Assembly (NCBI RefSeq): GCF_044324785.1
Contig: NZ_CP172127.1
Reading direction: 5' to 3' (one strand)
Origin: Escherichia coli
GTDB taxonomy: Bacteria > Pseudomonadota > Gammaproteobacteria > Enterobacterales > Enterobacteriaceae
Length of the DNA stretch: 64,000 nucleotides
Shown here: positions 1 through 58,997 of the stretch, piece by piece
Position numbering within the stretch: position 1 is the stretch's first letter
How the letters are laid out: every line of letters begins with the position of its first letter
The notes under the pieces: generated by a model
Seen by the model: only the letters and a program-made list of their open reading frames with translations
Told to the model about the DNA's origin: nothing
Database searches by the model: none
Position numbers and translations under genes: made by a program

Positions 1-797
1 CTATTCTGAACCCGTCATCACCTTTATAGCTAAGAGTATGACTTCGCCAGTGTTGATACTGTGGATAACGGTGATTAAGGAATTACTGTTAATGATCTGT
101 TCCTGCAGCTCACCTGATGAGTTTTGGTAGTAATACGTAAAAGAGTATGCCTCATGTCATTAAAAAGTCTTCCGGAGTGTTGTTTAACCCTGTACCTCTG
201 TTACTCATGTAGTACGTTGCGGAAAGCTACGTTAATTGTAATATCTGGTTATGGCGTTATGCCTTCAGTATTAAAAACATCTTTTACCGGAGAAACTGGG
301 AAGTGGAAAGGCTTTCGGGATAACGTCAGGCCATTATGACGATATTACGTTAATCACAGTACAAGATAACGAGAGGGTAATGGAATTTTAAACCAGAGTA
401 GTTCCACTGTTGTTCACTGGAAAAAGTGATTTCCCACGCGCGTTATAAGCTTACTCCAGAGGAGATGGAAGCCTTCAACTCTGCGGTCGATCACCGGCTG
501 GCAGAACTGACCATGAACAAACTTTACGATCGTGTTCCCGCTTCAGTCTGGAAATATGTTACCTGATAAATGTTTCTGATGAAGTACAGTCGTCACAATG
601 ACATCACTTCAGATATTATCTGCGCTGTGATTGACTGTCACGTATGCCGTTCTCTGTATGGTTCTGATACCCGGGTGTGGTCCCACTTTCTCTGTGGCGC
701 CCGGGGAGTTGTGAACCTGCACGTCTTCGTGTGATAACGTTTTCTTCAAAAATTACGCCAGCGCTTCTTCCTGTGTTACAGAACACGAGGAAGAAAC

Positions 798-1397
798 ATG
801 AAGACTTACAACACCAATCCCGGTTACGAAATGGATCCCCAGCTCCTGACACACTTTAACCAGCATCTGGATTCATTATTCGGGGTATATTCGAAACTGT
901 TACCGTTCAGAATGGATTTTGCTTACCGAAAAAACACCCTCAGCTACAGATGTGCCTGCAGGTACGCCATGTGCGCGGAGATACTGCGACTGATTAACGA
1001 AGTGGGAGAGAAACTGGTCGGGTATGCCTGGGTAATGGAATATACGGAACGTAAAGGGCTTCACATTCATTTTGTGGGCTATCTGAACGGTCAGAGCCAC
1101 AGGAGTTCGTATCTGGTATCCAGATTGATGGGAGATATCTGGAGGCGGGTTACCGGGGGGGATGGTTACTACCACTGGTGCCGGTTTAATAAAAATTATC
1201 CGGTAAACATTAACCACGTCATTCACTATTCAGATCACAAAGCGGTGAATGCCTTACGCTATGCCATCAGCTACCTGGCCAAACGAGAACAGAAAGAATG
1301 TGGCATCATCCTGAAATGCAGCGGGCTTCCTGAAAAAAGTAATCGGGGTCGACCGCGACTGGGCAGCCCCCTGCCGGAGACTTATTCTCTGGTGTAA
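798..1397 (+). CDS. YagK/YfjJ-family protein (inovirus Gp2-like), cryptic-prophage backbone gene
   Basis: 199-aa ORF; family resemblance including an H-x-H motif (GLHIHFVGY) and C-terminal RYAISYLAKREQ segment; paralog of ORF at 29921. Confidence 0.65.
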   Translation: MKTYNTNPGYEMDPQLLTHFNQHLDSLFGVYSKLLPFRMDFAYRKNTLSYRCACRYAMCAEILRLINEVGEKLVGYAWVMEYTERKGLHIHFVGYLNGQSHRSSYLVSRLMGDIWRRVTGGDGYYHWCRFNKNYPVNINHVIHYSDHKAVNALRYAISYLAKREQKECGIILKCSGLPEKSNRGRPRLGSPLPETYSLV

Positions 1398-1762
1398 GAC
1401 CCTGAACGACAACTACGGGCTGGCGCTAATTGTTACAGTCGGTTCCGGAGGCCACTTCAGGGACTCTGCGCATTTTTTACGACATGGCTATTCCGTATGA
1501 ACCATACGGAGATTTAACCATGGCACATTCTTTACCATTCCTTCCGGCAACCGATACAGCACATCCTCCGATGTCCATCCCTGCCTGCTGACAGTTTTTT
1601 ACGCCGGAGGGCCATTGTGTGACAACCACAGTGCTGTAACAGCAACCAGCCTGCTTTACCCAAACTCCAGTCCAGATTTTAACTGAACCGCCATTCACAC
1701 CCTGACCACACTGCCCGTACCGGGACAGCTGTTGCCTGCGTGTCGTCTGGCTGCTGAGGAAT

Positions 1763-2152
1763 ATGACGATGTACGCAAAATCCTTTATTGCATTTGATGG
1801 CAACGGGCGTCTGACGGGTGCCCGTACCGCACAGACTGCACCTTACGATCGCTACACTTGCCACCTTTGCGGCAGTGCGCTCAGATACCACCCGCAATAC
1901 GACACTGAGCGTCCCTGGTTTGAACACACTGACGACGGGCTGACGGAGCACGGTCAGCAGTGCCCTTATGTCAGACCGGAACGCAGGGAGATACAACTGA
2001 TTAAGCGTCTGCAGCAATTCGTACCGGATGCCTTACCCGTGGTGCGTAAAGCCAGCCGGCACTGCAGACAATGTCATCACGATTATTATGGGGAGCGGTA
2101 CTGCACGCACAGCCATACCGGGCACTTCAGTGAGGAGGGGGTGGCAGAATGA
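1763..2152 (+). CDS. Cys-rich putative zinc-ribbon protein (CxxCG...WFEH motif), unknown function
   Basis: 129-aa ORF; CHLCGS...PWFEH plus C-terminal CRQCHH..C..H cluster; stop overlaps start of the next paralogous ORF (ATGA at 2149-2152). Confidence 0.45.
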   Translation: MTMYAKSFIAFDGNGRLTGARTAQTAPYDRYTCHLCGSALRYHPQYDTERPWFEHTDDGLTEHGQQCPYVRPERREIQLIKRLQQFVPDALPVVRKASRHCRQCHHDYYGERYCTHSHTGHFSEEGVAE

Positions 2153-2574
2153 ACGGTATAAAAACGGGGCTGGGGATCACGCCGGGTGAACACATTATCA
2201 GTGCTGATTCTGCGCTCAGCAGAAATATCCGGCAGTGTTTCTGCCTTTCCTGTCATGGCCGGTTGATTTTGCAGACAGATGCTCAGGGGGCGTGGTTTGA
2301 GCACGATTTACATGTCCTGAGCGAGCAACAGAAGGCAGCCTGCGTGGTGCTGAATCCGGAAAAGTCCCACCCTTACATTGAGGATATGGAGATGTTTTTA
2401 TCGCCATTACCGGTCGTGCTGGAGTGGCATTGTGTGATGTGTGAGCAGTTTTTTCATGGGAAGAAATTCTGTGAGGCCTGTGGTACGGGGATTTATTGCA
2501 GAGCGGTATGTACGAAGTCTGTTTACAGCTACCAGCCAGACTTGTTTCAGGACTGCGGAGGTGCGAGTACTTAA
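2149..2574 (+). CDS. Cys-rich putative zinc-ribbon protein, paralog of the upstream ORF
   Basis: 141-aa ORF; CLSCHG...AWFEH motif and C-terminal CVMCEQ..CEACG..C cluster; 4-bp overlap with upstream gene suggests translational coupling. Confidence 0.45.
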   Translation: MNGIKTGLGITPGEHIISADSALSRNIRQCFCLSCHGRLILQTDAQGAWFEHDLHVLSEQQKAACVVLNPEKSHPYIEDMEMFLSPLPVVLEWHCVMCEQFFHGKKFCEACGTGIYCRAVCTKSVYSYQPDLFQDCGGAST

Positions 2575-2724
2575 TCCGAAATGCCCGACCTGCTCAGGGC
2601 GTTCAGAAGTATCGGAACCTGCATTTTATCTGGTGTTTCGCACCCACCCCGTTCGTGACACAAAGGCGCGACACCGGATATCCGCAGTCCTGCTTACCTG
2701 AATAAAACCCGGGGTATTGATTGT

Positions 2725-2781
2725 GTACTGTGGTGCGAAATCGCACCGTGATCGCGGATTCGCCGAATCCGCACTGTGGTG
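2725..2781. repeat. Two adjacent perfect hairpins flanked by a 9-bp direct repeat (ACTGTGGTG)
   Basis: GGTGCGAAATCGCACC (2732-2747) and GCGGATTCGCCGAATCCGC (2754-2772); ACTGTGGTG at 2727-2735 and 2773-2781. Confidence 0.5.
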
Positions 2782-3045
2782 TCAACCAACCATACGCGAG
2801 AGTCCTCTCCGTATTTATCAGTGCCTCAGGACGATTTCTGCATAGTTAATCCAGGGGGCTGCATTGTTTATTTCCCTGCTAATGGACGTGACATCCAGGA
2901 TATTCATGATCCTGATTTCCCTGAGCAGTATCAGCGCTTATTGGAGCGTCTGGATTATCAGACGATGCCCGGTACTAAAGCATCAGGCCAGCGTAACTCT
3001 GGCTACAGCGGTTTTTGACCTGTTGTAACTGTAAGGTGATTTATT

Positions 3046-3612
3046 ATGTATACAGAATCAAATGTTAAGCTTTCCTGTAACGCCCTCTGGCAAAAGTGTG
3101 TCCTTGCAACTCTGTATCGGGCTGCAGCCACACATCCTGAAATTAAATTATTACAATTTAAATTAATACCAGGGCAGGGTATTAATAAGGCCATTCCCTC
3201 TCTGATGGCTGATTTTACTGGTGAACTGCATAGACTCATTTCTGAATATTTGCAGTGTAAGCGACGTAAAGAGCAATCTGTTGAGCCCACCCCTTTATAT
3301 TATCTCTGGAGTAGGGAAGCTGTGGCTAACGATACCACTCCTTATCTTATGGTGCTGCTACTTAATAACGATGTCTGGTGTAAGAGTCGTGAGGTGGTGG
3401 TTCTCAGAAATCTGATTGAGCAGGCGTGGGGAAAAGTATTGGGTGAAGATAACTCCATTACACATCTGGTTGTGTATCCTGAAGTGCTGTCGTTGGTATT
3501 TGATGCAGCTAACACATACAACGCTGAGCCTGCTGTACTGGAACAGACGGCCCGGGCTTACATTGAATCACATGGTACCATTGAACGTCATCTTGGGTGT
3601 AGTGACTTTTAA
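3046..3612 (+). CDS. Gp2/YagK-like family paralog with degenerate H-x-H region
   Basis: 188-aa ORF; PYLMVLLLNNDVWCKS aligns with HYHVILLLNKDTWCSP of the ORF at 25669. Confidence 0.45.
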   Translation: MYTESNVKLSCNALWQKCVLATLYRAAATHPEIKLLQFKLIPGQGINKAIPSLMADFTGELHRLISEYLQCKRRKEQSVEPTPLYYLWSREAVANDTTPYLMVLLLNNDVWCKSREVVVLRNLIEQAWGKVLGEDNSITHLVVYPEVLSLVFDAANTYNAEPAVLEQTARAYIESHGTIERHLGCSDF

Positions 3613-3724
3613 CGTCAGGTGATGCATAAGGGCCTTTCGCTGAGAGGCCCTGTTTACACAATTAAATAAATCGAGCCCGACCAACAATTTTGATGTTAAC
3701 AGCAGGATTATTGAGGGGCAATCA

Positions 3725-3830
3725 ATGTGTTCTTCGGTAGCGATTACGGTAGTGAACGGACCTGCTGTCTGAATGGCATCGATCCGCAAGCGTATCGGCG
3801 CCATATTCTGAGCGTACTACTGAAATGGCT
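3725..3830 (+). pseudogene. IS66-family transposase C-terminal remnant
   Basis: Translation FFGSDYGSER..CCLNGIDPQAYRRHILSVLLKW matches the C-terminus of the IS66 transposase at 57024-57383 (FFGSDHGGERGALLYGLIGTCRLNGIDPEAYLRHILSVLPEW) with a frame disruption; approximate bounds. Confidence 0.5.
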
Positions 3831-3957
3831 AATGGCAGTAAAGAGAGACTTTACGTATATTTGCATAAAGCAGGATTTTACGACTAGTCAACATTCTTTA
3901 TAATTCTTCAGGTTCAGAGTATCTGACATATAGGGTTATGTATTGGGGAGACATTTA

Positions 3958-4659
3958 ATGTTTGGCCATCTGTTACGATACTTTAGTTTCTGTAAAAAAG
4001 ATTTATTAGTATTTCATCCTGAATCTGATTACTCAGATAATTTACATAAAGCCTTCTCTTTTACAAAAAGGCTAGGATTTAATGAAGAATGGAATGGGGT
4101 CACAAAAAACAAAGAATATGATTATCAGGATGTATTCAGTCATGTCTGTCTGCAGTCTGGTGTGACAGACTTTTCCGCTTCAGCAGGACAATGCTTAAAG
4201 TGGAGTCATTATTTTCAGCCATATTTTGAGAATATCCTTGAATGTCGGGTATGGGTTACCGTTGGACAACTCTGGAAACAGGAACGATTTATTTACAATC
4301 CGTCAGTTGCGGATTTTCAGCGCTGGTCTGAAAAAGGGATTCAGCCTGAAGATTTTAGACATCACTCGGGGTTTAACTTTCATGCGTGGTTGACGACGGA
4401 AAATGGTGTGATTGTGGATGTTTCCTTTATGAGTACGTTATCGCGGCGATTACCTGAACACCTGAGTGAAGTCAGTGGAAGTGTGATTATTGGCACGCCA
4501 GAGACGGTTCTTCCTGAGTATAAATATGTTCCCATGATTGTCGGTCAGAGGATTGTTGAGAAAATAGAAAAACGCTCTTTCATTGGTTTTCTGGCGCACG
4601 ACGATATTGATTTATATACAGTACCTGCAATCTTGGTTCCGGTATGGAAAGAATGTTAA
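3958..4659 (+). CDS. Hypothetical protein, no recognisable family; orphan cargo gene
   Basis: ORF 3943-4659; likely ATG at 3958 preceded by GGGGAG; AT-rich upstream region; flanked by IS66 and IS21 remnants. Confidence 0.5.
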   Translation: MFGHLLRYFSFCKKDLLVFHPESDYSDNLHKAFSFTKRLGFNEEWNGVTKNKEYDYQDVFSHVCLQSGVTDFSASAGQCLKWSHYFQPYFENILECRVWVTVGQLWKQERFIYNPSVADFQRWSEKGIQPEDFRHHSGFNFHAWLTTENGVIVDVSFMSTLSRRLPEHLSEVSGSVIIGTPETVLPEYKYVPMIVGQRIVEKIEKRSFIGFLAHDDIDLYTVPAILVPVWKEC

Positions 4660-4978
4660 AGCACGGAATAACACTATGCACTTACCGCTTTCCGGAACTC
4701 AGCTTGTTACCTGAGCGGTCAACAGAGCAGTCTTTCAGTGTCTGCACTTGGTTGCCACTAAACCGGAGTCATTTATCAGAAGTATATGTTCATGGAAGGA
4801 TATTGTCAGCGCCAGTGATATAAGACGGTAATGAGGATAGCCACCCCGCATGGGTTTCCTCAACACTGGTCACTGTGACAAGCGCACCATGATCGTCTTT
4901 GTATCGCTGATTGACTTTCGATAATAGAACATCTTCTGACATAAATTTTAGTACGGTAACAATTAACTAAATTTTCAT

Positions 4979-5245
4979 GTGGTAGCACTGAATCAGGAGA
5001 CTGCGTTTCCTGATGTGTGCTTCTGCAGCCGTTACCGGATACAGACTTCGATACCAGTTACTTCGACATCCGCCATGTGTCCTGGGACCCGCTATAACGA
5101 AGTTGGAGGTAATCAGTACAGCGTTCCCGAAATGCTGTGTGGTCAGCCAGTCTCGATACGAATATCGCTGAACGATGAGTTGCGGATCTACAGTAATGAG
5201 AAACTGGTGGCCTCACATCGCCTCTGCTCAGTGTCGTCTGGCTAG
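4979..5245 (+). pseudogene. Possible IS21-family IstA C-terminal fragment
   Basis: Segment YSVPEMLCGQPVSIRISLNDELRIYSNEKLVASHRL resembles IstA C-terminal region; weak, by eye. Confidence 0.3.
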
Positions 5246-5389
5246 CAGATAGTACCGGAACCTCACGCCCCGCTCTGGCAGCAGATCAGTCAGGTGGAAC
5301 ATCGACCACTGAGTGCCTATGAGGAGCTGTTGTGATGCATGTGTCAACGACGGATGAAAGTGGCTCTTCCGCAACCTGGGTGGAGATTT

Positions 5390-6816
5390 TCATGCCAGTG
5401 GACTCATTACCCTCTGCCTGAGTAGTTCAAATCCTGCTCGACCATACATCTGGCGTTTCAGCATCTTCAGGCGATTTACATGACCTTCGACAACACCATT
5501 ACTCCAGTGACTACTGATTGCCTCACATATAGCTGCAGCATCAGCTTCCATCCCCGCCGCCACGCGCCGAAATTCTGCTGAACCGCTTTCGTGGACTCGA
5601 GTGAACCAACTGCTTAGCTGTGATTTATTTTGGGTTTTCAGAATACGGTAGAACTCGAGTGCCAGTTGCTGCGCTATTTTCAGCTCAGGTTCTTTTTCAC
5701 ACATCAGACTAATAAATCGGGAAGCATAATTTTCTTCATCCCTGGTTATTCTCCAGGGCATCAACCAGCGGCTTACCCGGGACACTGAAGGAAGTCTGAC
5801 GGCAGTAGTAACCGGTGGGTTCCAGCCTTTACGCCATTTGGCAACCGCATCCCTGACGATGGTTTCACTGCCTGTAAATCCCCGGGCCACCATTTCCCGC
5901 CATATCCGGCTGGCGTTATAATTACCACTTTCTCGTTGCTCTTTTAACCACTCCCTCCATGGGTCCAGAAGCCCTCGCTTTGGCGGTCGGGTTGACATTT
6001 CAGGGAATGTTCCTGAACGCACCCAGCGACTGACTGTCACACGCGACAGGCCTGTAATACGGGATATTTCCCTGAAACTACATCCCTTGTTATGCAGGGC
6101 CATAACCTCTGTCCAACGCTGATGCCGTTTTTTGCGGGTTTGTTGTTTTAGGCGTTCCGGACGACGGAGCGATGCTGCAGGCACAGATGGTTCTGGATCA
6201 GGTGATTTCTTTGGTGACAACTCACTGGCAACAAGACGTATCAGAGGTATATGTCTATACATCATTCGTTCAGGCGCATCGCCAATATTTTTTAGCAGAT
6301 GCCATCGATCGGCCACCTGTCTGGCCTGAGGTGCACCTTCACGTGCTGCTGTCGCATAGACTCCACTGCGATCACGCGAGACAATCTGTATTTCCGGATA
6401 TTTTCTGAACCAGGTCGCCAGCGTACGCTGATCACGGCCGGGAAGCAGGACGAGGGGACGGTGAGTATCAAGATTGACGATTAACGTACCGTAACGGTGG
6501 CCCCGATGCCACGCCCACTCATCAATACCGACATGAGGCGAGCCTGACTGTTTCGTCTCCGGGGTATTGATAACCCTGCGAAGGAGAGTATCAGCACTGC
6601 AACGGAGACCCACTGCCGTTGCTGCCCGTTTCCCGGCCTCACCTCCGGCGATTAATCCCAGTTGACGTTGTAAATTTTGTAACGCCTGTGAAGACTGTTG
6701 GTGTGAACCGGCGAAGGGAGCAAGCGACTCGGCAAAAATTTTACGTGAACAAGCCGGGTTACGGCAGTACCAGTGGCGGACAGAAAATACAAGCCATAGC
6801 GTATGTCCTGAGCAGG
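5390..6816 (-). pseudogene. ISL3-family transposase, N-terminus interrupted by IS2
   Basis: C-terminal SNGVVEGHVNRLKMLKRQMYGRAGFELLRQRV signature; RHWYCRNPAC zinc knuckle and VGIDEWAWHRGHRYGTLIV DDE region; first 13 codons of track ORF 5390-6853 are encoded by the IS2 right end. Confidence 0.6.
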
Positions 6817-6827
6817 TGGATTTGCCC

Positions 6828-7733
6828 CTATATTTCCAGACACCTGTTATCACTTAACCCATTACTGGCCTGCTGCCGCAGATATTCCCGTGGCGAGCGA
6901 TAACCCAGTGCACTATGCGGATGCCATTCGTTATAATGCTCGAACGCCTCTGCAAGGTTCTTTGCTGCCGTTAACCCGTCTGGTTTAGGCATGATACTGA
7001 TGTAGTCACGCTTTATCGTTTTCACGAAGCTCTCTGCTATGCCGTTACTCTCCGGACTCCGCACCGCCGTGTTCTTCGGTTCAAGCCCCAACATCCGGGC
7101 AAACTGCCGTGTTTCATTAGCCCGGTAGCATGAACCATTATCCGTCAGCCACTCTACTGGAGACGCCGGAAGCTCGTTGCCGAAGCGGCGTTCCACCGCT
7201 CCTGGCATGACGTCCTGTACTGTTTCACTGTCGAAGCCGCCCGTAGTGACTGCCCAGTGCAGTGCCTCACGGTCACAGCAGTCCAGCGCGAACGTGACTC
7301 GCAGTTTTTCTCCGTTATCACAGCGGAACTCGAACCCGTCAGAGCACCATCGTTGATTGCTTTCTTTCACGGCCACTTTGCCAGTATGTGCCCGTTTCGA
7401 TGGCGGTACAGCGGTTTTTCGCTCAAGCAACAGCGCATTCTGGCGCATGATCCGGTAAACACGTTTGGCATTGATCGCAGGCATACCATCAAGTTCGGCC
7501 TGTCTGCGAAGCAGCGCCCATACCCGACGATAACCATACGTGGGCAGCTCTCCGATAACATGGTGTATACGGAGAAGCACATCCGTATCATCTGAGTGAC
7601 GGCTGCGGCGACCATCTTTCCAGTCATCGGTTCGTCTGAGAATTACGTGCAACTGCGCACGCGACACCCGGAGACAACGGCTGACTAAGCTTACTCCCCA
7701 TCCCCGGGCAATAAGGGCGCGTGCGCTATCCAC
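6828..7733 (-). CDS. insD: IS2 transposase OrfB (InsD)
   Basis: 301-aa ORF with rve-type DDE integrase core; recognised as IS2 InsD from memory. Confidence 0.9.
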
Positions 7734-8056
7734 TTTTTTGCACGCCCGTATTCAACGGCTTCTTTAAGGAGTTCATTTTCCATCGTTTTTTTGCCGAGCA
7801 GGCGCTGGAGTTCTTTAATCTGCTTCATGGCAGCAGCAAGTTCAGAGGCAGGAACGACCTGCTCTCCTGCGGCCACAGCAGTAAGACTTCCCTCCTGGTA
7901 TTGCTTGCGCCAGAGAAATAACTGGCTGGCTGCCACACCGTGTTGCCGGGCAACAAGGGAGACCGTCATTCCCGGTTCAAAACTCTGCTGAACAATAGCG
8001 ATCTTTTCCTGTGTAGTACGCCGTCTGCGTTTCTCCGGTCCTAAGACATCAATCAT
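7691..8056 (-). CDS. insC: IS2 OrfA (InsC)
   Basis: Starts [27 protein letters not shown] protein overlapping orfB as in IS2. Confidence 0.85.
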
Positions 8057-8613
8057 CTGCTCTCCAATGACTAGTCTAAAAACTAGTATTAAGACTATCA
8101 CTTATTTAAGTGATATTGGTTGTCTGGAGATTCATGGGGCCAGTCTAATGTGTATCCGGGATGGATGTTTACCAGAACCTTCTCTGTTCCAGTGTGTGGA
8201 GTTTTACAGAAGAGGCGACTGTATGCAACTCTTGCCCCGTAACTGTCTTTATTCGTTTCTCCACACTCTCCGGACATTGTAAATTCCAGATGTGTGGCAG
8301 TGTGTTTTTCGTAAATCGTACACAATGCATTTTTACACGGAGTTCAGCCAGTCGTATCACTGAGAGTTTTTTTCTGATTTGTACCACTCATGCAGCAGTG
8401 ATAAGGAGATATTTTCTCTGTCGGGCCAGCAGGGGCGGTGCCACCTGTTTAGTTTTCTTATGTTTGGTAAAAGAGAGGCTAAAATATATACAACAGGCGT
8501 ATGTAATGATTCATATTGTTAATCATTAACCAGTAAGAATTAATGTAGTGGATCGGTAATTCAGGACACCTCGAAATCCTGTTAATGTTAAAACAGTGAA
8601 AATGGGGTGATGC

Positions 8614-8931
8614 ATGAGCAAAACTCGTCGGACTAAACGCACCTTTTCCCCGGAGTTCAGGCTCGAAGCTATCGAGCAAGTAGTTAAATACCAGCGCGAT
8701 GTCAGAGAAGTCGCGCTGGCACTTGAGCTCAATCCTGACCATTTGCGTAAATGGATACGGTTGTATAAGCTGGAACTTCAGGGTATTGAGCCCGCTGGTA
8801 ATGCCATACCCCTGAACAGCGAGAAATTCAGCAGCTTAAAAGCGCAGATAAAGCGCCTTGAGATGGAAAAAGAAATACTAAAGCAGGCTGCCGTGCTGAT
8901 GAGCGAAATCCCCGGCAAGCTGTCGCGCTAA
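8614..8931 (+). CDS. IS3-family transposase OrfA (HTH plus leucine zipper), element truncated downstream
   Basis: 105-aa ORF MSKTRRTKRTFSPEFRLEAIEQV...LEMEKEILKQAAVLM; only the first codons of an orfB follow before the adjoining IS-like copy at about 9062. Confidence 0.65.
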   Translation: MSKTRRTKRTFSPEFRLEAIEQVVKYQRDVREVALALELNPDHLRKWIRLYKLELQGIEPAGNAIPLNSEKFSSLKAQIKRLEMEKEILKQAAVLMSEIPGKLSR

Positions 8932-9061
8932 TCACACTGCTGAAAGCAAAGCGGCCAGTGCGGATTATTTGTCATTTATTCGGTGTTCACCGTAGCGTTT
9001 ATTACGCGCAGGTGAAGCGTCCTGTTAATGTATCAGCGCCAATGATATAAGACAGTAATTA

Positions 9062-10688
9062 GGATTCGGACGATTTCCTGGACTGCTTTATTATGCCAGC
9101 CCGCATTGTTGGCGGTACATTTCAGGGATGACTGCACCCAGCGAAAATTTTATACGCCGCTCGTTATACCATCTGATGTAAGCATCCACATGCCGCATGA
9201 ATTTTTCAGGCGTGATACCCAATCATTTACGCCCATAATATATTTCAGTTTTCAGTCTGCCGAAAAAGCCTTCGCATGCAGCATTATCAGGCGAGCATCC
9301 TTTACGGGACATTGAGCGAATAAGGCCTGCTGTATTCACTCTTTCCAGCCAGGCCAGCGATAATGCCCACCTCTGTCACTGTGTATCACCGGTCGTTCGC
9401 CAGCATTTAACGTTTCGACAGCGTTATCCAGCATAGTGTTGACCAGTTCAGCATCGGGGCGTGTACTGAGAGACCAGCTCACAACTTTTCTGTCGAAGCA
9501 GTCCACCACCGGTGATAGCCAGACTTTTCCTGCAGGAAGCTGGAACTCCGTGATATCTGTCAGCCATTTCTGATTAGGTTGCTCCGCCTTAAAATCTCTG
9601 GCGATAAGGTTATCCGGAGAAGGTCCGATTTCTCCGCAATATGAGCTGTAGCGGCGATGACGGTTACGGCTGACGACAAGCTGTTCCTCCACCATAAGTC
9701 TGCGTACAACCTTTTCTGATAGCCGATCCCCCTCATGCCTGAGCATCGCATGCAGGCGACGATAGCCATAACACTGGTAATTACTGTTAAATATATCTGT
9801 CAGCATCGTACGTATCGTGGCGTATTTATCACTGGCTTTCAGTGCAGCCCGGTGATAAAAATAACTGCTACGGGCAAGGCCCAGAACATGCAGTAATTCT
9901 GTCAGGGGATATGTTTATCTCAGGGCATCAGTAATCTTTGTTTTTTCTCTGTTGTTCAGGTGACTGATGCTGATGCCCGGGTCTTTTTTTATTATTTCCT
10001 CCGCTTTTTTCAGAATATCCAGTTCCATCTGCCGGCGGCGTATTTCCTGATTCAGTCGGGCGACTTCCTCCCGCAACGCATCGCGTTCTGCCTCCAGGGA
10101 AGGGGCGTTATGTTTACGCATAGTCTGGTAAGCACTGTTGCCGATAATTTCATCTTTCCATTTATACAATACCGCGCGACTGACACCAATACGCCTGGCG
10201 ATTTCACTGGCTGATCCTTGTCGTGTACAGAGTACCATGACAGCCTGACGTTTGACTTCTGGTTCAAAGGACGCAACCGGATTGGTCTTACTGGTAAATA
10301 CACGTCGTCTGTCGGGGGAACGTTCATTAACCCAGCGAGCGAGCATATCGGTACAGGGATAACCCAGAGTCCTGCTGGTAAACGCCAGGCAGCAGCCGTG
10401 GTTAAGATAATGTTCAACGGCAACCTGTTTTTGCTCATCGGAGTAACGGTGCTTATGACGAATGGATTCTTTTGATCCGCCACCTGCTTCCCATGAACGG
10501 ATCCAACGCCGCAGATTTCTTTTCGAAGGGTAGCCCAGTTCGCGTACGACGGGGCCAGCTTCTTACCATATTTGAAATAAAGCTCAATGGTGCGAATTTT
10601 TTGTTCTTCAGTAAACATGTTTCATCTCCTGAGAGTCCAGGAAATCGTCCGCATCCCCTAACGGTCAAAAATCGTGGCGTTGATACAG
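9062..10688 (-). mobile_element. DDE (rve) IS-like element, copy 1, decayed; about 50-bp terminal inverted repeats
   Basis: Left end TGTATCAACGCCACGATTTTTGACCG (reverse complement at 10688); right IR lacks about 35 terminal bp; transposase carries a 1-bp frameshift after MFTEEQKIRTIELYFKYGKKLA, a TAA where copy 2 has CAA (Gln), and further shifts near the 3' end. Confidence 0.65.
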
Positions 10689-10868
10689 GGGAAATCCGTA
10701 GTTTTTGATGCCAGCCATAACGTGTTTGACTATAAAGTATTACGAAAGGACTTTAATGAGCCCCTGGAATAATTCATTAAAGTAATTTACTTCGCTATCC
10801 TTTTCCCAGTTACTCACAAAGAAAAATATTCATAAAATAATTCCCGGGCTGGCAGCCCGGGATGATTA

Positions 10869-12131
10869 CTATTTTAATGGATTGTTAATCTTTGCATATT
10901 CAAACGGGCTGATACATTGTTCTCTGTTCGCACCCAGAAAATCTGCCCACCACTGTAGCATCAGTCGACGTTCTTCCAGATGTTCTGCTTTATGGATATA
11001 TGCAGCACGTACACCATTACGCTCCTGATGGCTCATCTGACGTTCCACAGCATCGCGGGACCACAAACCTGATTCAATCAATGCACTGCACGCCATCGCC
11101 CGGAATCCATGACCACAGACTTCCTGGGTTGTGTCATATCCCATCACCCTCAGGGCTTTATTTACAGTATTTTCACTGATCGGTTTACGCGGGTCATGTG
11201 CTCCCGTAAAGATCAGACCATTTTCACCAGCCCATGTCTGTAGTTCTGTCAGTATGGCTACAGCCTGTTTGCTGAGTGGCACAAGATGTGGTGTTCGCAT
11301 CTTGGAGCCCCGGTGTGAGTATTTTACGCCTGGCAGAGGTTCGCGTTCGGCTGGAATAGTCCACATGGCATTGTCAATATCAATTTCAGACCAGCGGGAA
11401 TATCTGAGTTCACTGGAACGAATAAAAACCAGTAAATTCAGCATAACTGCCAGTCGGGTGACAGGCTGACCTTTATAACCGTCAATACGCGACAGAAGTT
11501 CAGGCAGGCGTGAAAGATCCAGAGCAGGGCGATGCTGGCGTTTTACCGTGGTCAATGCACCAGCCATATCCAGAGCCGGGTTATATCTGATGATGCCAGA
11601 CTGTACGGCATAACGCATTACAGCAGATATTCTTTGCTGCAGACGACTGGCGATTTCATAAATTTGTTTTGCTTCTGCAGCACGAACAGGGATAAGCAGG
11701 TCCGGGGTATTGAGTGTTGTGATATCCCGGTTGCCGATAAAGGGGAAAACGTGTGTCTCGAGGCTTTTGATTACTTTATCGCTGTGTGATTGTGCCCATT
11801 GTTTATTACTGGCATGCCAGCGTCGTGCAATATGTTCAAAAGAGAGTTGTAAATCAGGGACTACTTTTTTAGCTCTTTTTTGTTCGCAAGGGTCAATCCC
11901 CTCTGAAATCAGTTTTCGGGCCTCATCCCGTTTTGTACGAGCTTCGGAGAGAGAAACTTCTGGATATACACCAAGTGCCAGAGTCTTCTCCTTACCCAGA
12001 ATACGATAACGGAGACGCCAGTAACGGGAACCATTAGGATGAACCAGCAGGAACATGCCAGCCCCGTCAGTGAGTTTATAAGCCTTGTCAGTGTGCTTTG
12101 CAGCCCGGATTTTTGCGTCAGTCAGTGCCAT
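10869..12131 (-). CDS. P4-type tyrosine integrase (CP4-like island integrase)
   Basis: 420-aa ORF; N-terminal LTDAKIRAAK..GMFLLVHPNGSRYWRLRYR arm-binding domain and C-terminal catalytic region (HGFRAM...RAAY). Confidence 0.9.
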   Translation of the reverse strand: MALTDAKIRAAKHTDKAYKLTDGAGMFLLVHPNGSRYWRLRYRILGKEKTLALGVYPEVSLSEARTKRDEARKLISEGIDPCEQKRAKKVVPDLQLSFEHIARRWHASNKQWAQSHSDKVIKSLETHVFPFIGNRDITTLNTPDLLIPVRAAEAKQIYEIASRLQQRISAVMRYAVQSGIIRYNPALDMAGALTTVKRQHRPALDLSRLPELLSRIDGYKGQPVTRLAVMLNLLVFIRSSELRYSRWSEIDIDNAMWTIPAEREPLPGVKYSHRGSKMRTPHLVPLSKQAVAILTELQTWAGENGLIFTGAHDPRKPISENTVNKALRVMGYDTTQEVCGHGFRAMACSALIESGLWSRDAVERQMSHQERNGVRAAYIHKAEHLEERRLMLQWWADFLGANREQCISPFEYAKINNPLK

Positions 12132-12295
12132 AGTTCAGCCTTCTGAATGCGTTAAAGAGGGTACAAATTCTGTCGAACTGGGGTATACCCGCAATTATAC
12201 CCACACAATGGGGTTGATGTGGGGGGAATCTGGTTGAGTTCGGTAGAATTGATTTGGAGGCAGAACGCTTAAATTGTGGCGTTCTGAAACGAAAA

Positions 12296-12317
12296 ACGGA
12301 CCTCCGTGGAGGTCCGT
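12296..12317 (-). terminator. Rho-independent terminator hairpin downstream of the tRNA-Phe 3'-end copy
   Basis: Perfect palindrome ACGGACCTCCGTGGAGGTCCGT followed on the minus strand by TTTTCGTTTC. Confidence 0.5.
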
Positions 12318-12328
12318 TGATATGAATT

Positions 12329-12347
12329 TGGTGCCCGGACTCGGAAT
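12329..12347 (-). repeat. Copy of tRNA-Phe 3' end (att core) without tRNA body
   Basis: Minus-strand ATTCCGAGTCCGGGCACCA equals the last 19 nt of E. coli tRNA-Phe; upstream sequence does not match the tRNA body. Confidence 0.65.
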
Positions 12348-12594
12348 GAAACTGGTTGTATAACAAGTTGTTTTATATTGATTGTTTTGTGTTTGTTATT
12401 TTTGAGGCCACCAATGAGGCCCCCATGTGCAATTCGAATTCTTTTGACGCTATAATCCCTCTTTCTTGTGGTTTGTTGTAATCATTTTGTCTGGTTCGAT
12501 ATGCTGAATCGCGGAATCGAAGTGACAACAAAATACAGAGATTTATAAAATACCTGGCTACCTGTGTTAGGGAGCGTTAACGCACAGATTTTGT

Positions 12595-52843: not shown

Positions 52844-54814
52844 ATGTATATGAATGTAATCAGAACTGTCATTTGTACATTAATTATAGTCCCGGTGGGA
52901 CTACAGGCAGCGACCAGTCATTCTTCTATGGCTAAAGATACAATCACCATTGTCGCGACAGGAAATCAGAACACGGTATTTGAAACGCCGTCGATGGTCA
53001 GTGTCGTCACGAATGACACACCGTGGAGTCAGAATGCGGTTACATCGGCCGGCATGCTGAAAGGTGTTGCCGGTCTCAGCCAGACTGGTGCAGGACGGAC
53101 CAATGGGCAGACCTTTAATCTACGCGGCTATGACAAAAGCGGGGTACTTGTTCTTGTTGACGGCGTCCGCCAACTCAGTGACATGGCAAAAAGCAGTGGC
53201 ACTTATCTGGATCCGGCTCTTGTCAAACGTATCGAAGTTGTCCGCGGGCCAAACTCCAGTCTGTACGGCAGTGGCGGGCTGGGAGGTGTAGTGGACTTCA
53301 GAACTGCCGATGCAGCAGATTTCCTTCCCCCCGGAGAGACAAACGGTTTAAGTCTGTGGGGAAATATTGCCAGTGGTGACCACAGCACAGGCTCGGGGCT
53401 CACCTGGTTCGGTAAAACCGGAAAAACAGATGCGCTCCTTTCTGTCATTATGCGTAAAAGAGGTAATATCTATCAAAGTGATGGTGAGCGCGCACCTAAC
53501 AAGGAAAAACCTGCAGCCCTGTTTGCGAAAGGCTCTGTCGGTATAACAGACAGTAACAAAGCAGGTGCCAGCTTGCGTCTCTACCGGAATAACACCACTG
53601 AACCGGGCAATCCCACTCAGACACATGGTGACAGCGGCCTGCGTGACAGAAAAACAGTACAAAATGACGTACAGTTCTGGTACCAGTACGCTCCTGTGGA
53701 TAACAGCCTCATCAATGTAAAGTCAACGTTATATCTCAGTGATATCACTATCAAGACAAACGGTCACAACAAAACGGCAGAATGGAGAAACAACAGAACC
53801 TCCGGTGTTAATGTTGTCAACAGGAGTCATACTCTGATTTTTCCGGGAGCCCATCAGTTAAGTTATGGCGCTGAATATTACCGTCAGCAGCAGAAGCCAG
53901 AAGGCTCTGCCACACTATATCCGGAAGGAAATATTGACTTTACATCGTTGTATTTCCAGGATGAAATGACAATGAAAAGCTACCCTGTTAACATTATCGT
54001 CGGTTCCCGCTATGACCGGTACAAGAGCTTCAATCCCCGTGCCGGAGAACTGAAAGCCGAACGCCTGTCCCCAAGGGCGGCGATTTCAGTCTCACCGACA
54101 GACTGGCTGATGATGTACGGCTCCATATCCTCTGCATTCCGAGCGCCCACAATGGCAGAAATGTACAGGGATGATGTACATTTTTACCGCAAGGGTAAAC
54201 CCAATTACTGGGTTCCTAACCTTAATCTGAAACCAGAAAATAACATCACCCGTGAGATTGGCGCAGGTATTCAACTGGATGGCCTGCTTACAGACAATGA
54301 CCGGCTGCAGTTAAAAGGCGGATATTTCGGAACGGATGCCAGAAACTATATTGCCACACGCGTGGATATGAAACGGATGCGTTCTTATTCTTATAATGTA
54401 TCCCGGGCCCGTATCTGGGGATGGGATATGCAGGGAAATTACCAGTCTGATTATGTTGACTGGGTGCTTTCTTATAACCGGACGGAAAGTATGGATGCCA
54501 GCAGCAGGGAATGGCTGGGCTCCGGCAATCCTGACACACTTATCAGTGACATCAGCATACCTGTTGGTCATAGAGGCGTTTATGCCGGATGGCGTGCTGA
54601 ACTTTCAGCATCAGCCACGCATGTGAAAAAAGGCGACTCCTATCAGGCTGGCTATGCCATACATTCCTTTTCACTGTCTTATAAGCCTGTAAGTGTTAAA
54701 GGCTTTGAGGCGTCAGTAACTCTGGATAATGCCTTCAACAAGCTTGCCATGAATGGCAAAGGTGTGCCGCTTTCAGGCCGAACTGTCAGTCTTTATACCC
54801 GTTATCAGTGGTAA
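52844..54814 (+). CDS. TonB-dependent outer-membrane haem/haemoglobin receptor (ChuA/ShuA-like)
   Basis: 656-aa ORF; signal peptide, plug-domain GYDKSGVLVLVDGVRQ, C-terminal beta-barrel ending YQW. Confidence 0.8.
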   Translation: MYMNVIRTVICTLIIVPVGLQAATSHSSMAKDTITIVATGNQNTVFETPSMVSVVTNDTPWSQNAVTSAGMLKGVAGLSQTGAGRTNGQTFNLRGYDKSGVLVLVDGVRQLSDMAKSSGTYLDPALVKRIEVVRGPNSSLYGSGGLGGVVDFRTADAADFLPPGETNGLSLWGNIASGDHSTGSGLTWFGKTGKTDALLSVIMRKRGNIYQSDGERAPNKEKPAALFAKGSVGITDSNKAGASLRLYRNNTTEPGNPTQTHGDSGLRDRKTVQNDVQFWYQYAPVDNSLINVKSTLYLSDITIKTNGHNKTAEWRNNRTSGVNVVNRSHTLIFPGAHQLSYGAEYYRQQQKPEGSATLYPEGNIDFTSLYFQDEMTMKSYPVNIIVGSRYDRYKSFNPRAGELKAERLSPRAAISVSPTDWLMMYGSISSAFRAPTMAEMYRDDVHFYRKGKPNYWVPNLNLKPENNITREIGAGIQLDGLLTDNDRLQLKGGYFGTDARNYIATRVDMKRMRSYSYNVSRARIWGWDMQGNYQSDYVDWVLSYNRTESMDASSREWLGSGNPDTLISDISIPVGHRGVYAGWRAELSASATHVKKGDSYQAGYAIHSFSLSYKPVSVKGFEASVTLDNAFNKLAMNGKGVPLSGRTVSLYTRYQW

Positions 54815-56182: not shown

Positions 56183-56584
56183 GTGGGAACCAAAGTGTCA
56201 GATATGCAGAAAAATGTGACTCCCGGCAGGCGAAAAGGCTGCCCTAATTATCCTCCCGAATTTAAACAGCTGCTCGTTGCTGCCTCCTGTGAACCCGGGA
56301 TATCCATCTCAAAACTTGCTCTTGAAAATGGCATTAACGCCAATCTGTTGTTCAAATGGCGACAACAATGGCGCGAGGGAAAGCTGCTATTACCTTCTTC
56401 AGAGAGCCCCCAGCTACTTCCTGTGACTCTCGATGCAGCTGCCGAACAGCCAGAATCGCTCGCAGAGGACCCGGAAACCCTCAGTATCAGCTGTGAGGTA
56501 ACGTTCCGGCACGGGACGCTCCGCTTCAATGGCAATGTCAGCGAAAAGCTCCTGACTCTGCTGATACAGGAACTGAAACGATGA
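56183..56584 (+). CDS. IS66-family OrfA
   Basis: 133-aa ORF; homologous to the orfA at 58994-59419. Confidence 0.7.
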   Translation: MGTKVSDMQKNVTPGRRKGCPNYPPEFKQLLVAASCEPGISISKLALENGINANLLFKWRQQWREGKLLLPSSESPQLLPVTLDAAAEQPESLAEDPETLSISCEVTFRHGTLRFNGNVSEKLLTLLIQELKR

Positions 56585-56928
56585 TCCCGTTACCTTCCGG
56601 GACCAAAATTTGGCTGGTTGCCGGTATCACCGATATGAGAAATGGCTTCAACGGCCTGGCTGCGAAAGTACAGACGGCGCTGAAAGACGATCCCATATCC
56701 GGCCATGTTTTCATTTTCCGGGGCCGCAGCGGCAGTCAGGTTAAACTGCTGTGGTCCACCGGTGACGGGCTGTGCCTCCTGACCAAGCGGCTGGAGCGTG
56801 GGCGCTTCGCCTGGCCGTCAGCCCGTGATGGCAAAGTGTTCCTTACGCAGGCGCAGCTGGCGATGCTGCTGGAAGGTATCGACTGGCGACAGCCTAAGCG
56901 GCTGCTGACCTCCCTGACCATGCTGTAA
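56581..56928 (+). CDS. IS66-family OrfB
   Basis: 115-aa ORF; LPSGTKIWLVAGITDMRNGFNGLA; homologous to orfB at 58647-58997. Confidence 0.75.
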   Translation: MIPLPSGTKIWLVAGITDMRNGFNGLAAKVQTALKDDPISGHVFIFRGRSGSQVKLLWSTGDGLCLLTKRLERGRFAWPSARDGKVFLTQAQLAMLLEGIDWRQPKRLLTSLTML

Positions 56929-57023
56929 ATCTCTTTATCCTGGTTGTCACAGAATAAGCCCGGTAAAATACGGGCTTATGAACGACATCTCTTGTAAGCG
57001 TCAACGGAGCACCGTATTGACGC

Positions 57024-58616
57024 TTATTTATTGGTGAGTACTACGTTCCATGGCAGGAGTTCGTCAACACAGTTGGAGGGCCATTCCGGCAGTACGCTCA
57101 GAATATGGCGCAGATACGCTTCCGGATCGATACCGTTCAGACGGCAGGTGCCGATCAGCCCGTACAGCAGTGCTCCACGCTCGCCGCCGTGATCGCTACC
57201 GAAGAACACGTAATTTTTCTTTCCGAGACAGACTGCACGAAGCGCTCTTTCCGCTGTGTTATTGTCCGCTTCTGCCAAACCATCATCACTGTAATAACAG
57301 AGGGCGTCCCACTGATTCAGTACATAGCTGAACGCTTCGCCCAGTCTGGATTTTTTCGACAGCGTGCCATTCTTCTCCACCATCCATTCATGCAGCGACG
57401 TCAGTAACGCTTTGCTTCGCTGCTGCCTGGCTGCAAGACGCTCTGACTCTGGTAATCCCCGTATTTCATCCTCGATGGCGTACAGTTCACTGATTCACTT
57501 CAGGGCTTCTTCTGCCGTCGCACTTTTGCTGCTGATGTATACATCGTGGATTTTTCGCCGGGCATGGGCCCAGCACGCAACTTCTGTCAGTGCACCACCT
57601 TCACGTTCTGCACTGAACAACCTGTCGTAACCTGTGAACGCATCCGCCTGCAGGATACCCCGGAAGGGGCGAAGGTGTTGCTCCGGGTGTTTCCCCTGCC
57701 GGTTCGGCGAGTACGCGAACCAGACCGCTGGAGGAGATGACGAACCCACATTGCGATCATCCCGGACATACGTCCAGATACGCCCTGTTTTCGCCTTTTT
57801 CTGACCCGGTGCCAGTACCTTTACCGGTGTGTCATCAGTGTGAACCTTGCGGGTGTTCATTACATAACGGTACAGGGCATCATTCACCGGTGTCATTAAC
57901 TGGCAGCACGCGTCAACCCAGTTGGAGAGTAAGGCCCGGCTCAGTTCGACACCCTGGCGGGCAAAGATTTCACTCTGACGATACAGTGGCAGATGTTCGC
58001 AGTATTTTCCCGTTAACACGCGGGCAAGTAATCCGGGGCCCGCGATACCACGCTCTATCGGGCGGGACGGCGCCGGTGCTTCAACAATACAGTCACATTT
58101 TGTACAGGCTTTTTTTACCCGTTCTGTGCGGATCACTTTCAGGGCACTGCTCACCAGTTCCAGCTGTTCAGCGCTGACTTCCCCCAGATAATCCAGCTCA
58201 CCGCCACACTCCGGGCAACAGCTTTCTTCTGGCTCCAGGCGGTGTATTTCACGGGGAAGGTGTGCCGGTAACGGACGACGATGGCGCGACTGTCGCAACT
58301 GGCGGGGAACCTGAGGATCGTCTTCCCGCCCACTGTAACGATCGCTGTCCTGTTCACGTTGTTTCAGCAGAGCCTCAGCCAGTTCAACTTCACGACGCAG
58401 TTTTTCAGAACGGGTACCGAACAGCATCCGGTGCAGTTTTTCTATCTGAGCCCGCAGATGTTCTATTTCCCGTTCATCTTCTTCGATCTTTTCTTCGGCA
58501 CGTGCCAGTGCAGAGCGCAGGAAGGCCTCCGTCTCTTCAACCAGACTCAGTTGCTGGTCTTTCTGACGGAGCTGGCTTTCCAGTTCTGCAATGCGAATGA
58601 GGTATTTCTGACTCAT
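57024..58616 (-). pseudogene. IS66-family transposase (OrfC) with in-frame TGA nonsense codon
   Basis: Track ORFs 57495-58616 and 57024-57383 share one frame; TGA at 57495-57497; reading through gives ...TAEEALK*ISELYAIEDEIRGL... Confidence 0.75.
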
Positions 58617-58646
58617 GGCCGTTTTTATAATGCGGCCAGGCGTTTT

Positions 58647-58997
58647 TTACAACATTGTCAGTGCGTTAAGGCGGAATGTTTTTGGCTGACGCCAGTCCAG
58701 CTTATCGAGGAGCATTGCCAGTTGCGAGCGGGTAATGGATACCTTGCCGTCACGTACCGCAGGCCAGATAAACTGGCCTTCCTCCAGGCGTTTGGTGAAC
58801 AGGCACAGACCATCAGCATCAGCCCAAAGAATTTTGACGGTGTCACCCCGTCGGCCACGGAAGATAAACAGGTGACCGGAGAAGGGATTATCATTCAGCA
58901 CATGTTGTACCTGTTCTCCCAGTCCGTTGAAGGATTTACGCATATCGGTAACGCCGGCAACGAGCCAGATACGGGTACCTGATGGGAGTGAGATCAT
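58647..58997 (-). CDS. IS66-family OrfB
   Basis: 116-aa ORF; LPSGTRIWLVAGVTDMRKSFNGLG. Confidence 0.8.
   Translation of the reverse strand: MISLPSGTRIWLVAGVTDMRKSFNGLGEQVQHVLNDNPFSGHLFIFRGRRGDTVKILWADADGLCLFTKRLEEGQFIWPAVRDGKVSITRSQLAMLLDKLDWRQPKTFRLNALTML

Follow-up and report, generated by a model that had tools for sequence, protein, structure and literature searches.

A complete copy of the insertion sequence IS2 (IS3 family, IS2 group) occupies positions 6817 to 8147, on the minus strand, of a 64,000-nucleotide stretch of Escherichia coli DNA (hereafter 'the window'). Its right end (IRR, 6817-6846, minus strand), which begins with TGGATTTGCCCC at position 6817, and its left end (IRL, 8118-8147, minus strand), which finishes with ...GGGGCCAGTCTA at position 8147, were placed by reading of the sequence and by an end search. 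They carry the terminal inverted repeats (TAGACTGGCC... and ...GGGGCAAATCCA) of the IS2 group, and the outer 12 base pairs are those of the K-12 element IS2A at both ends. The initial annotation had described an element of 1,331 bp with canonical ends; that length is correct, but the ends are better termed near-canonical than identical to the reference, because a single base differs in each: IS2 position 13 of the IRL (relative to the canonical 30-mer) and IS2 position 1305 of the IRR (a substitution relative to K-12, in an end that matches the IRR query exactly).

Both genes of the element appear to be intact. The first, orfA (7691-8056, minus strand), encodes a 121-residue HTH protein that is identical to K-12 InsC (InsC1), and that matches the NCBIfam model 'IS2 repressor TnpA' across 121 of 121 residues (276 bits, against a cut-off of 229). 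The second, orfB (6828-7733, minus strand), was identified from the ORF list, from alignment and from NCBIfam, and encodes a 301-residue protein with an rve/DDE domain that matches 'IS2 transposase TnpB' throughout its length (301/301 residues; 703 bits, against a cut-off of 597). An A6G motif (AAAAAAG) for -1 frameshifting can be read in the orfA/orfB overlap at 7733-7739 (minus strand), and a programmed frameshift is annotated by PGAP for the IS2 transposase gene in TUM9803. Judged by its sequence, this IS2 copy is full-length and apparently functional. In a global alignment with K-12 IS2A (NC_000913, 381260-382590) it displays 95.6% identity over an equal length, with 59 substitutions (one of them in each inverted repeat) and no indels; the two elements thus share their 1,331-bp length, termini, OrfA protein, A6G site and a full-length OrfB, and differ at approximately 12 amino acids of OrfB and in the absence, at the window copy, of a 5-bp target-site duplication. 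The window holds this one copy of IS2; an IS2-like remnant (71-77%) is found at approximately 51.8-52.7 kb.

Immediately abutting the IRR of IS2 is a 5'-truncated remnant of ISEc38 (ISL3 family; 5362-6816, minus strand), which corresponds to the truncated ISL3 transposase gene recognized in the initial annotation and retains 1,455 of 1,722 bp. An intact ISEc38 (positions 3563-5284 of the IS2-free locus L001 of strain ST3) spans 1,722 bp, with 23-nt inverted repeats and a 539-residue transposase; the remnant keeps the IRR arm (5362-5384) and the transposase from codon 66 to its stop (5390-6816), and has lost its IRL, 267 promoter-proximal bp and codons 1-65. The truncated protein still matches the NCBIfam model transpos_ISL3 (330 bits, against a cut-off of 180, beginning at profile position 35) and the Pfam model DDE_Tnp_ISL3 (E=5e-35), and a domain search of it did not detect the Zn_ribbon_ISL3 domain, which spans residues 40-84 of the intact protein. 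PGAP names the gene 'ISL3-like element ISEc38 family transposase, incomplete, missing N-terminus', that is, a pseudogene. ISEc38 at this locus is therefore a remnant rather than a complete element, and is immobilized because one end and the zinc ribbon have been lost.

The same junction creates a mechanical open reading frame of 487 codons (5390-6853, minus strand, from the ORF list), in which a GTG within IS2 (6853-6851, corresponding to IS2 position 1295) is in frame with ISEc38 codons 66-539. The donation of a start codon by IS2 had been noted before and is upheld; the accompanying count of 13 codons is slightly high, since IS2 contributes 12 complete codons and the opening base of the codon that spans the junction. 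An in-frame TAA immediately precedes the GTG, which is simply the first codon after it. A consensus scan of positions 6600-7000 yielded no promoter-like site, which led to the rejection of an outward-facing hybrid promoter spanning the IRR/ISEc38 junction. While gene callers report the fusion frame in public assemblies, PGAP treats it as a pseudogene, and it is most likely a mechanical artefact and not a functional gene; the start codon that the shortened transposase gene gains from IS2 is a by-product of the deletion described below.

The base pairs that flank IS2 do not match. On the left, GCAGG (6812-6816), within ISEc38, is joined to the IRR terminus; on the right, ATGTG (8148-8152), in AT-rich non-coding island DNA, is joined to the IRL terminus; and the two differ at four of five positions. 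A renewed reading of the exact boundaries excluded the matching 5-bp repeats that might have been overlooked. No IS2 copy with the reciprocal flanks is found in the window. Four unrelated copies located elsewhere served as controls, and all four display perfect 5-bp duplications (CCTCC, ATGCC, ATTAC and ATGGC), which indicates that the missing duplication is real and is not an error of boundary placement.

Its cause is established by relatives that lack IS2 at this position. An IS2-free version of the island is found in seven complete E. coli genomes, including that of strain ST3, the L001 locus of which was used as the reference for deletion coordinates. This version has a complete ISEc38 and, following it, a PapX-like MarR-family gene. 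Window positions 4800-6816 align with L001 3001-5017, and positions 8148-9100 with L001 6177-7129, at 99.95-100% identity and without overlap, such that GCAGG lies at L001 5013-5017 and ATGTG at L001 6177-6181. The intervening 1,159 bp (L001 5018-6176) are absent from the window, with IS2 precisely in their place and both junctions coinciding exactly with its termini; the segment was not found elsewhere in the window. The locus exhibits features of an IS-mediated adjacent deletion, namely a retained IS with its terminus exactly at the novel joint and flanks that are collinear with a longer, IS-free reference. The lost DNA comprises the left end of ISEc38 (267 bp, including the IRL and 65 codons), the MarR gene and approximately 330 bp of AT-rich spacer, and the immediate ancestor, as shown by comparison with these alleles, carried an intact ISEc38, then the PapX-like MarR-family regulator gene and that spacer. 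IS2 therefore marks the loss of 1,159 bp from a decayed, junk-rich genomic island adjoining a tRNA-Ser attachment site, and its missing duplication is explained by that deletion, since such a duplication is a feature of an insertion event and not of the element. The earlier proposals that this was not a simple insertion, and that it reflected either a deletion brought about by IS2 or recombination of one IS2 copy with another, are borne out to the extent that an IS2-associated deletion is supported by ST3 and the six other IS2-free genomes.

Besides TUM9803 and NRZ14408, at least 24 further public contigs share the identical junctions, which argues for one old event. (Window positions 1-12350 match TUM9803; the best complete-genome match to the remainder displays 96% identity over 85%.) Between strains, three to five substitutions are found within the 1,331 bp of IS2, as compared with none or one in approximately 9 kb of flanking sequence, and this clustering is the pattern expected if gene conversion had occurred among IS2 copies. 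Genomes of the NRZ14408 type additionally contain a 140-bp fragment of the IRL end, joined at the exact IS2 terminus. A microhomology-mediated tandem duplication was considered as the source of this repeat and rejected: it predicts TCTAATGTGTAG at the new joint, whereas the joint reads TCTA|CCTGTGTAG and coincides precisely with the end of IS2. Shared SNPs suggest that the 140-bp duplication is probably a derived state.

The reading that we favor, with somewhat better than an even chance of being correct, is a single IS2 insertion followed by an adjacent deletion made by its own transposase. In its first step, IS2 would have inserted in ordinary fashion into the AT-rich spacer, generating a 5-bp duplication of ATGTG. 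In its second, the IS2 transposase would have deleted the DNA adjacent to the IRR, joining the IRR terminus to GCAGG within ISEc38 and removing the 1,159 bp together with one copy of the duplication. This deletion might have proceeded either by strand transfer from the IRR, the sole donor end in the first reaction step of IS2, or through a short-lived tandem IS2 dimer, the IRR-IRL junction of which attacked the same molecule. The IRR is known to be the only donor end in step I of IS2 transposition (PMC3299598), which fits a scenario in which the IRR bears the novel joint; that argument is limited to the one-ended route, because both ends act as donors in a minicircle or dimer junction. The position of ATGTG in AT-rich non-coding DNA and of GCAGG in coding DNA (the GC content within 50 bp being 0.41 at the right breakpoint versus 0.54 at the left) was counted in favor of an insertion first at ATGTG, and the exact-terminus junctions, along with the duplications at the control copies, were counted in favor of joints made by transposase. 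The mechanism has precedent in this family: IS dimers, those of IS2 included, yield deletions with one endpoint at the boundary of an inverted repeat (PMC9333248), and in the long-term evolution experiment another IS3-family element, IS150, produced 68 events, of which 14 were associated with deletions and lacked a duplication; all 14 were traced to insertion and subsequent adjacent deletion (PMC11708052).

The precursor alleles were sought directly. IS2 at ATGTG, with its duplication and the MarR gene, was found neither in 5,426 complete genomes nor in 10 sampled MarR-gene contexts, nor in a scan of JGI metagenomes that had no positive control for the presence of the island in that collection. 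The two precursor junctions (...GGTGGATATGTG joined to the IRR, and the IRL joined to GCAGGGTAGATG...) were likewise absent from the 5,426 complete E. coli genomes and from two scans of JGI metagenome contigs, the latter a weak test, again without a positive control. No allele with two IS2 copies bracketing the lost segment was present in the same 5,426 genomes, and no IS2 adjoined an intact MarR gene among the sampled contexts of the MarR gene or those of the exact IS2 OrfB variant. An exact-protein look-up of the 66-residue N-terminal fragment of ISEc38, which would be expected had IS2 inserted first at GCAGG, recovered only an unrelated nonsense allele, a result also counted in favor of ATGTG as the first site. 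Three contigs that end exactly at the 66-residue position were set aside: CFT073 displays a TCA-to-TAA nonsense change at codon 67 in an unrelated ISEc38-like pseudogene, and the contigs break at the fork that this SNP produces, which makes their match to the 66-residue endpoint a coincidence. Genomes in which IS2 and ISEc38 appeared to be linked (H11, H22 and similar) carry the two as unrelated neighboring insertions that lie at other loci and each have a duplication. Since no precursor allele was found, the order of events is inferred and not observed.

The end product of an insertion and adjacent deletion is identical to that of recombination between two direct IS2 copies, a point that weighs against the favored reading, as does the exchange of sequence by homologous recombination among the IS2 copies of these genomes that the clustered substitutions show. 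In this second account, to which we assign a real but clearly smaller likelihood, IS2 would have inserted twice in the same orientation (at GCAGG and at ATGTG, each with its own duplication), and RecA-dependent recombination would have removed one IS2 together with the 1,159 bp, yielding exactly the structure seen, with the left flank derived from one insertion and the right flank from the other. The IRL-end fragment of the NRZ14408 type, lying at an exact terminus, shows that the locus was struck by IS2 more than once; the concentration of substitutions in IS2 is what gene conversion among copies would give, although it speaks for conversion in general and not for this particular deletion; and recombination between IS copies is named among the common reasons for a missing duplication (PMC11708052). 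Such a history nonetheless requires two same-orientation insertions within 1.2 kb, in addition to the recombination itself, and neither a single-insertion junction, nor a two-copy allele, nor the 66-residue product was recovered in the genome, metagenome and protein searches described above. An improbable third account invokes one step, in which the ends of an IS2 minicircle attacked sites 1,159 bp apart, or IS2 entered the break of an unrelated deletion, such that a duplication never existed. This would account for the absent intermediates, and duplication-free moves coupled to rearrangements have been proposed for IS5 and IS481 (PMC11708052); such an event is, however, undocumented for IS2, the 14 IS150 cases were all two-step adjacent deletions, and the lack of intermediates is equally expected of an old event with an unsampled precursor lineage.

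That a simple insertion merely lost its duplication to point mutation, or that its boundaries were misplaced, is a general possibility that now has next to no credibility: the flanking 5-mers differ at four of five positions, and each retains its ancestral sequence, at sites that 1,159 bp separate in the IS2-free allele; both termini correspond base for base to those of K-12 IS2A and the same method recovers the duplications of the four control copies. The alignment to the IS2-free allele and the control copies together refute it. Nor does it seem at all likely that the junction is functional, with read-through from IS2 and the donated GTG giving rise to an N-terminally truncated ISEc38 transposase that might, for instance, inhibit other ISEc38 copies in trans. 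The frame does stay open for 487 codons, follows IS2 orfB immediately on that strand, and has the same sequence in at least 24 public contigs. Such sameness, however, reflects descent from a recent common ancestor; the GTG is simply the first codon after the TAA; the scan of positions 6600-7000 gave no promoter-like site; the zinc ribbon of the product is destroyed; and PGAP calls the gene a pseudogene. The more specific proposal, that read-through from orfB and the IS2 GTG would express an ISEc38 derivative without the zinc ribbon that multimerizes with, and inhibits, the full-length transposase of other copies, is every bit as improbable; if true, it would represent a natural trans-dominant inhibitor of transposition, made when one IS truncated another.

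The deletion is of an ordinary and already well-known kind associated with insertion sequences, it reveals no new mechanism or element, and it has little importance beyond annotation. It does provide a natural IS3-family case without a duplication, the history of which can be rebuilt to the base from sister genomes. From those sequences a probable order of states can be reconstructed, leading from a pre-ISEc38 allele, through the insertion of ISEc38 and then the arrival of IS2 with the 1,159-bp deletion, to the 140-bp duplication of an IS2 end in one sub-lineage. The locus also illustrates the inactivation of one IS by another and the wearing away of island cargo by such elements (in this case the PapX-like MarR regulator), and strains with this island allele could be recognized by its junction, used as a lineage marker.

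Comparison with known systems places the locus among several with closely similar outcomes. As in the 'IS-del' events of IS150 (PMC11708052), an IS3-family element is kept at the joint, the junction lies at the IS terminus, no duplication is present, and the size of the deletion falls within the range of tens of bp to tens of kb; the precursors of the IS150 events were seen at earlier time points, while the two-step history of IS2 in the window is inferred. Recombination between direct IS copies leaves the same product (a single IS with non-matching flanks and loss of the intervening DNA), but requires two earlier insertions, neither of which was found in the searched genomes. Transposition via tandem dimers or IR-IR junctions, as described for IS30, IS21, IS911 and IS2 (PMC9333248, and cited work on (IS2)2), likewise predicts a deletion that runs from the boundary of one inverted repeat, with one copy of the IS left between an old flank and a new one; the window differs from those systems in containing neither a dimer nor an IRR-IRL junction, although such a dimer would have been transient.

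When 5,426 complete E. coli genomes were searched by megablast with window positions 4800-9100, three records contained the whole arrangement (TUM9803 once, NRZ14408 twice), and seven genomes that lack IS2 matched both flanks at approximately 100% identity. When aligned to the IS2-free allele of strain ST3 (locus L001), window 4800-6816 and 8148-9100 corresponded to L001 3001-5017 and 6177-7129; since these two alignments have no bases in common, the window has IS2 in place of the 1,159 bp at L001 5018-6176 of the ST3 allele, with breakpoints GCAGG|GTAGA and GGTGGAT|ATGTG. The lost DNA comprised the left end of the ISL3-family element ISEc38 (267 bp), a MarR-family gene (166 aa, WP_001301088; Pfam MarR) whose region displays approximately 85% nucleotide identity to one annotated papX (rows H95-96 of a 2.7-kb query spanning both breakpoints), and an AT-rich spacer of approximately 330 bp. 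The segment was sought elsewhere in the window and not found, and inversion or translocation was excluded because both flanks are still collinear with the reference. Some form of IS2-associated deletion is close to certain; the 1,159 bp between the flanks of the ST3 allele and the comparison with IS2-free relatives bear out the initial annotation, which had denied a simple insertion and proposed either an IS2-mediated deletion or recombination between two IS2 copies.

The complete IS2 (6817-8147, genes on the minus strand) begins with its IRR end (TGGATTTGCCCC...) at 6817 and finishes with its IRL end (...GGGGCCAGTCTA) at 8147, both assigned to the minus strand, and is the only copy in the 64-kb window by sequence reading and searches for IS2 ends. 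Its earlier description as 1,331 bp with canonical ends was essentially right, yet it is a diverged isoform: alignment to K-12 IS2A, of equal length, gave 95.6% identity with 59 substitutions (one in each inverted repeat, at IS2 positions 13 and 1305) and no indels. The OrfA protein equals that of K-12 IS2A, OrfB is full length, IS2-specific NCBIfam models cover both proteins over their whole length, and the A6G frameshift motif lies at 7733-7739. Fragments at 51782-52660, inverted relative to this copy and 71-77% identical to IS2, are a diverged IS2-group remnant and no second IS2 copy.

Re-inspection of the exact boundaries agreed that the flanking 5-mers, GCAGG (6812-6816) and ATGTG (8148-8152), are unequal. 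The same script that returned perfect 5-bp duplications (CCTCC, ATGCC, ATTAC and ATGGC) at four unrelated IS2 copies, which served as a control for boundary calls, found none at any IS2 copy at this locus. Decay of a duplication and misplacement of the IS2 boundaries were both excluded, the window being the ST3 allele with that one replacement.

To the left of IS2, 1,455 bp of ISEc38 are kept (5362-6816). The intact element of strain ST3 (L001 3563-5284; 1,722 bp) is bounded by inverted repeats of 23 nt and encodes a transposase of 539 aa. Missing from the window copy are the IRL, the upstream region and the first 65 codons; the breakpoint halves the Zn_ribbon_ISL3 domain (aa 40-84), which is undetected in the window product. 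The 487-aa junction ORF (5390-6853 in the ORF list) starts with a GTG at IS2 position 1295, directly after an in-frame TAA; this codon falls within the 3' end of orfB, which is read in a different frame. The proposal that IS2 supplies an in-frame start was upheld, its contribution being 12 codons plus the first base of the codon that spans the joint (ACC, Thr), close to the 13 codons first counted, after which ISEc38 continues at codon 66. No sigma-70-like site was found at 6600-7000, and PGAP annotates the truncated gene as a pseudogene; we regard the IS2-donated start codon as incidental. In the 'ancestral' allele, ISEc38 itself lacks an 8-bp target duplication (ATGAAAGT versus TGATTTCA, at L001 3555-3562 and 5285-5292, the left flank equalling window 5354-5361), and an intact IS100 adjoins the MarR side at the identical base (L001 5284) in at least 20 other genomes; the ISEc38 boundary is thus likewise a rearrangement joint.

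The surrounding island is heavily decayed: it contains fragments of IS21/IS100, IS3-family elements, IS66 and ISEc38, and an integrase is located at approximately 10.9-12.1 kb. In TUM9803 the same island borders a tRNA-Ser gene, beyond which lies an ICE of the SPI-7/PFGI-1 type. The window is collinear with TUM9803 only up to 12350, inside that gene; as ARAGORN found no tRNA genes in the window, only a 3' att-like part is present (12330-12350), followed by a different island. No near-identical complete genome was found for the remaining ~52 kb, the best complete-genome match to 12.3-32 kb showing 96% identity over 85%. That region encodes a TonB-dependent heme/hemoglobin receptor (52844-54814, 656 aa; TIGR01785, 414 bits), with two IS66-type units downstream (56183-59419; oppositely oriented TnpA/TnpB pairs and a truncated IS66 transposase). 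Inverted IS3-family copies at 9044-10316 (a frameshifted pseudogene) and 59511-60787 (with a 383-aa ORF), 96% and 89% complementary over 972 and 309 nt, bracket approximately 49 kb, and could permit inversion of that segment.

The exact junction ORF occurs in 36 indexed blocks of public assemblies; 24 contigs carrying it were read, and the junctions were alike in every copy of the allele. All other carriers examined, as far as their contigs reach (two short ones stop before some of the positions), share the three IS2 substitutions 7092T, 7483G and 7965T and, at 8366, a T8 run. At these sites the window shows K-12-like bases and, like the IS2-free ST3 allele, T7; its allele therefore looks basal among carriers. 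All three substitutions fall inside IS2, which is 13% of the compared length, and none in approximately 9 kb of flanks; NRZ14408-type genomes differ further at window 7203-7204, also inside IS2, and the variant bases as a whole alternate between K-12-like and non-K-12 states. This clustering suggests sequence exchange between IS2 copies through gene conversion, or consensus or polishing artefacts from reads of other copies.

In NRZ14408-type genomes (L003 and L024), the IS2 terminus is directly followed by a further 140 bp that repeat the IRL end (window 8008-8147; L003 6349-6488 in NRZ14408), the joint reading ...CCAGTCTA|CCTGTGTAG...CCAGTCTA|ATGTG. Microhomology duplication or slippage was rejected, as the predicted joint differs from that observed; this mismatch, and a joint exactly at the IS2 terminus, mark a second IS2 transposition-type event at the locus, which looks like insertion of IS2 into itself followed by recombination. 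Shared SNPs suggest that this arrangement is derived from the window-type allele.

The final structure fits three routes: an insertion after which the transposase made an adjacent deletion, recombination between two IS2 copies in direct orientation, or an aberrant one-step insertion with deletion. With the 2.7-kb query, every hit at 80% coverage or more was an IS2-free allele; synthetic junctions of the expected precursors, searched in complete genomes and in metagenomes, recovered no precursor; and the sampled contexts of the MarR gene had IS100, ISEc38 or IS66 nearby and never IS2. An insertion of IS2 at GCAGG would leave a 66-aa fragment, and an exact protein look-up for it matched a coincidental nonsense allele: in the ISEc38-like pseudogene of CFT073/Nissle type, codon 67 is changed from TCA to TAA (L031 4288-4303, CFT073 1171780 region). 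This is the position of the IS2-ISEc38 join, and the allele briefly mimicked a precursor. In some genomes, IRR and IRL ends lie ~110-560 bp apart (hits H121, H122, H124 and H125 of the precursor-junction query against complete genomes, for example XL10-Gold 3130782-3130894), and these may represent miniature IS2 derivatives with internal deletions.

As no precursor was found, the choice among routes rests on prior knowledge. We favour, as somewhat probable, a first insertion of IS2 into the AT-rich spacer at ATGTG (GC 0.41, versus 0.54 at GCAGG), followed by a deletion that would have extended from the IRR side to GCAGG in ISEc38; the novel joint would then lie on the donor-active end, IRR being the sole donor end in the first step of copy-out-paste-in transposition by IS2 (PMC3299598). 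IS elements seem to have targeted this spacer repeatedly; in one genome (L014 1334-3669), IS66 occupies it between the MarR gene and an IS3-family remnant, near the right breakpoint of the window. Two-copy recombination, which gains some weight from signs that IS2 has acted here more than once and has undergone conversion, is rather unlikely, and the aberrant one-step event is improbable.

The allele already exists in public genomes, where it is annotated as a pseudogene junction, and it is a textbook IS-associated deletion of a kind already known. Tandem IS dimers, IS2 among those reported, yield deletions from the edge of the inverted repeat (PMC9333248). IS3-family elements generate adjacent deletions, and fusion of orfA and orfB raises their frequency in IS3; of the 68 IS150 events in the long-term evolution experiment, 14 came with a deletion and no duplication, and each of these went back to an insertion followed by an adjacent deletion (PMC11708052).
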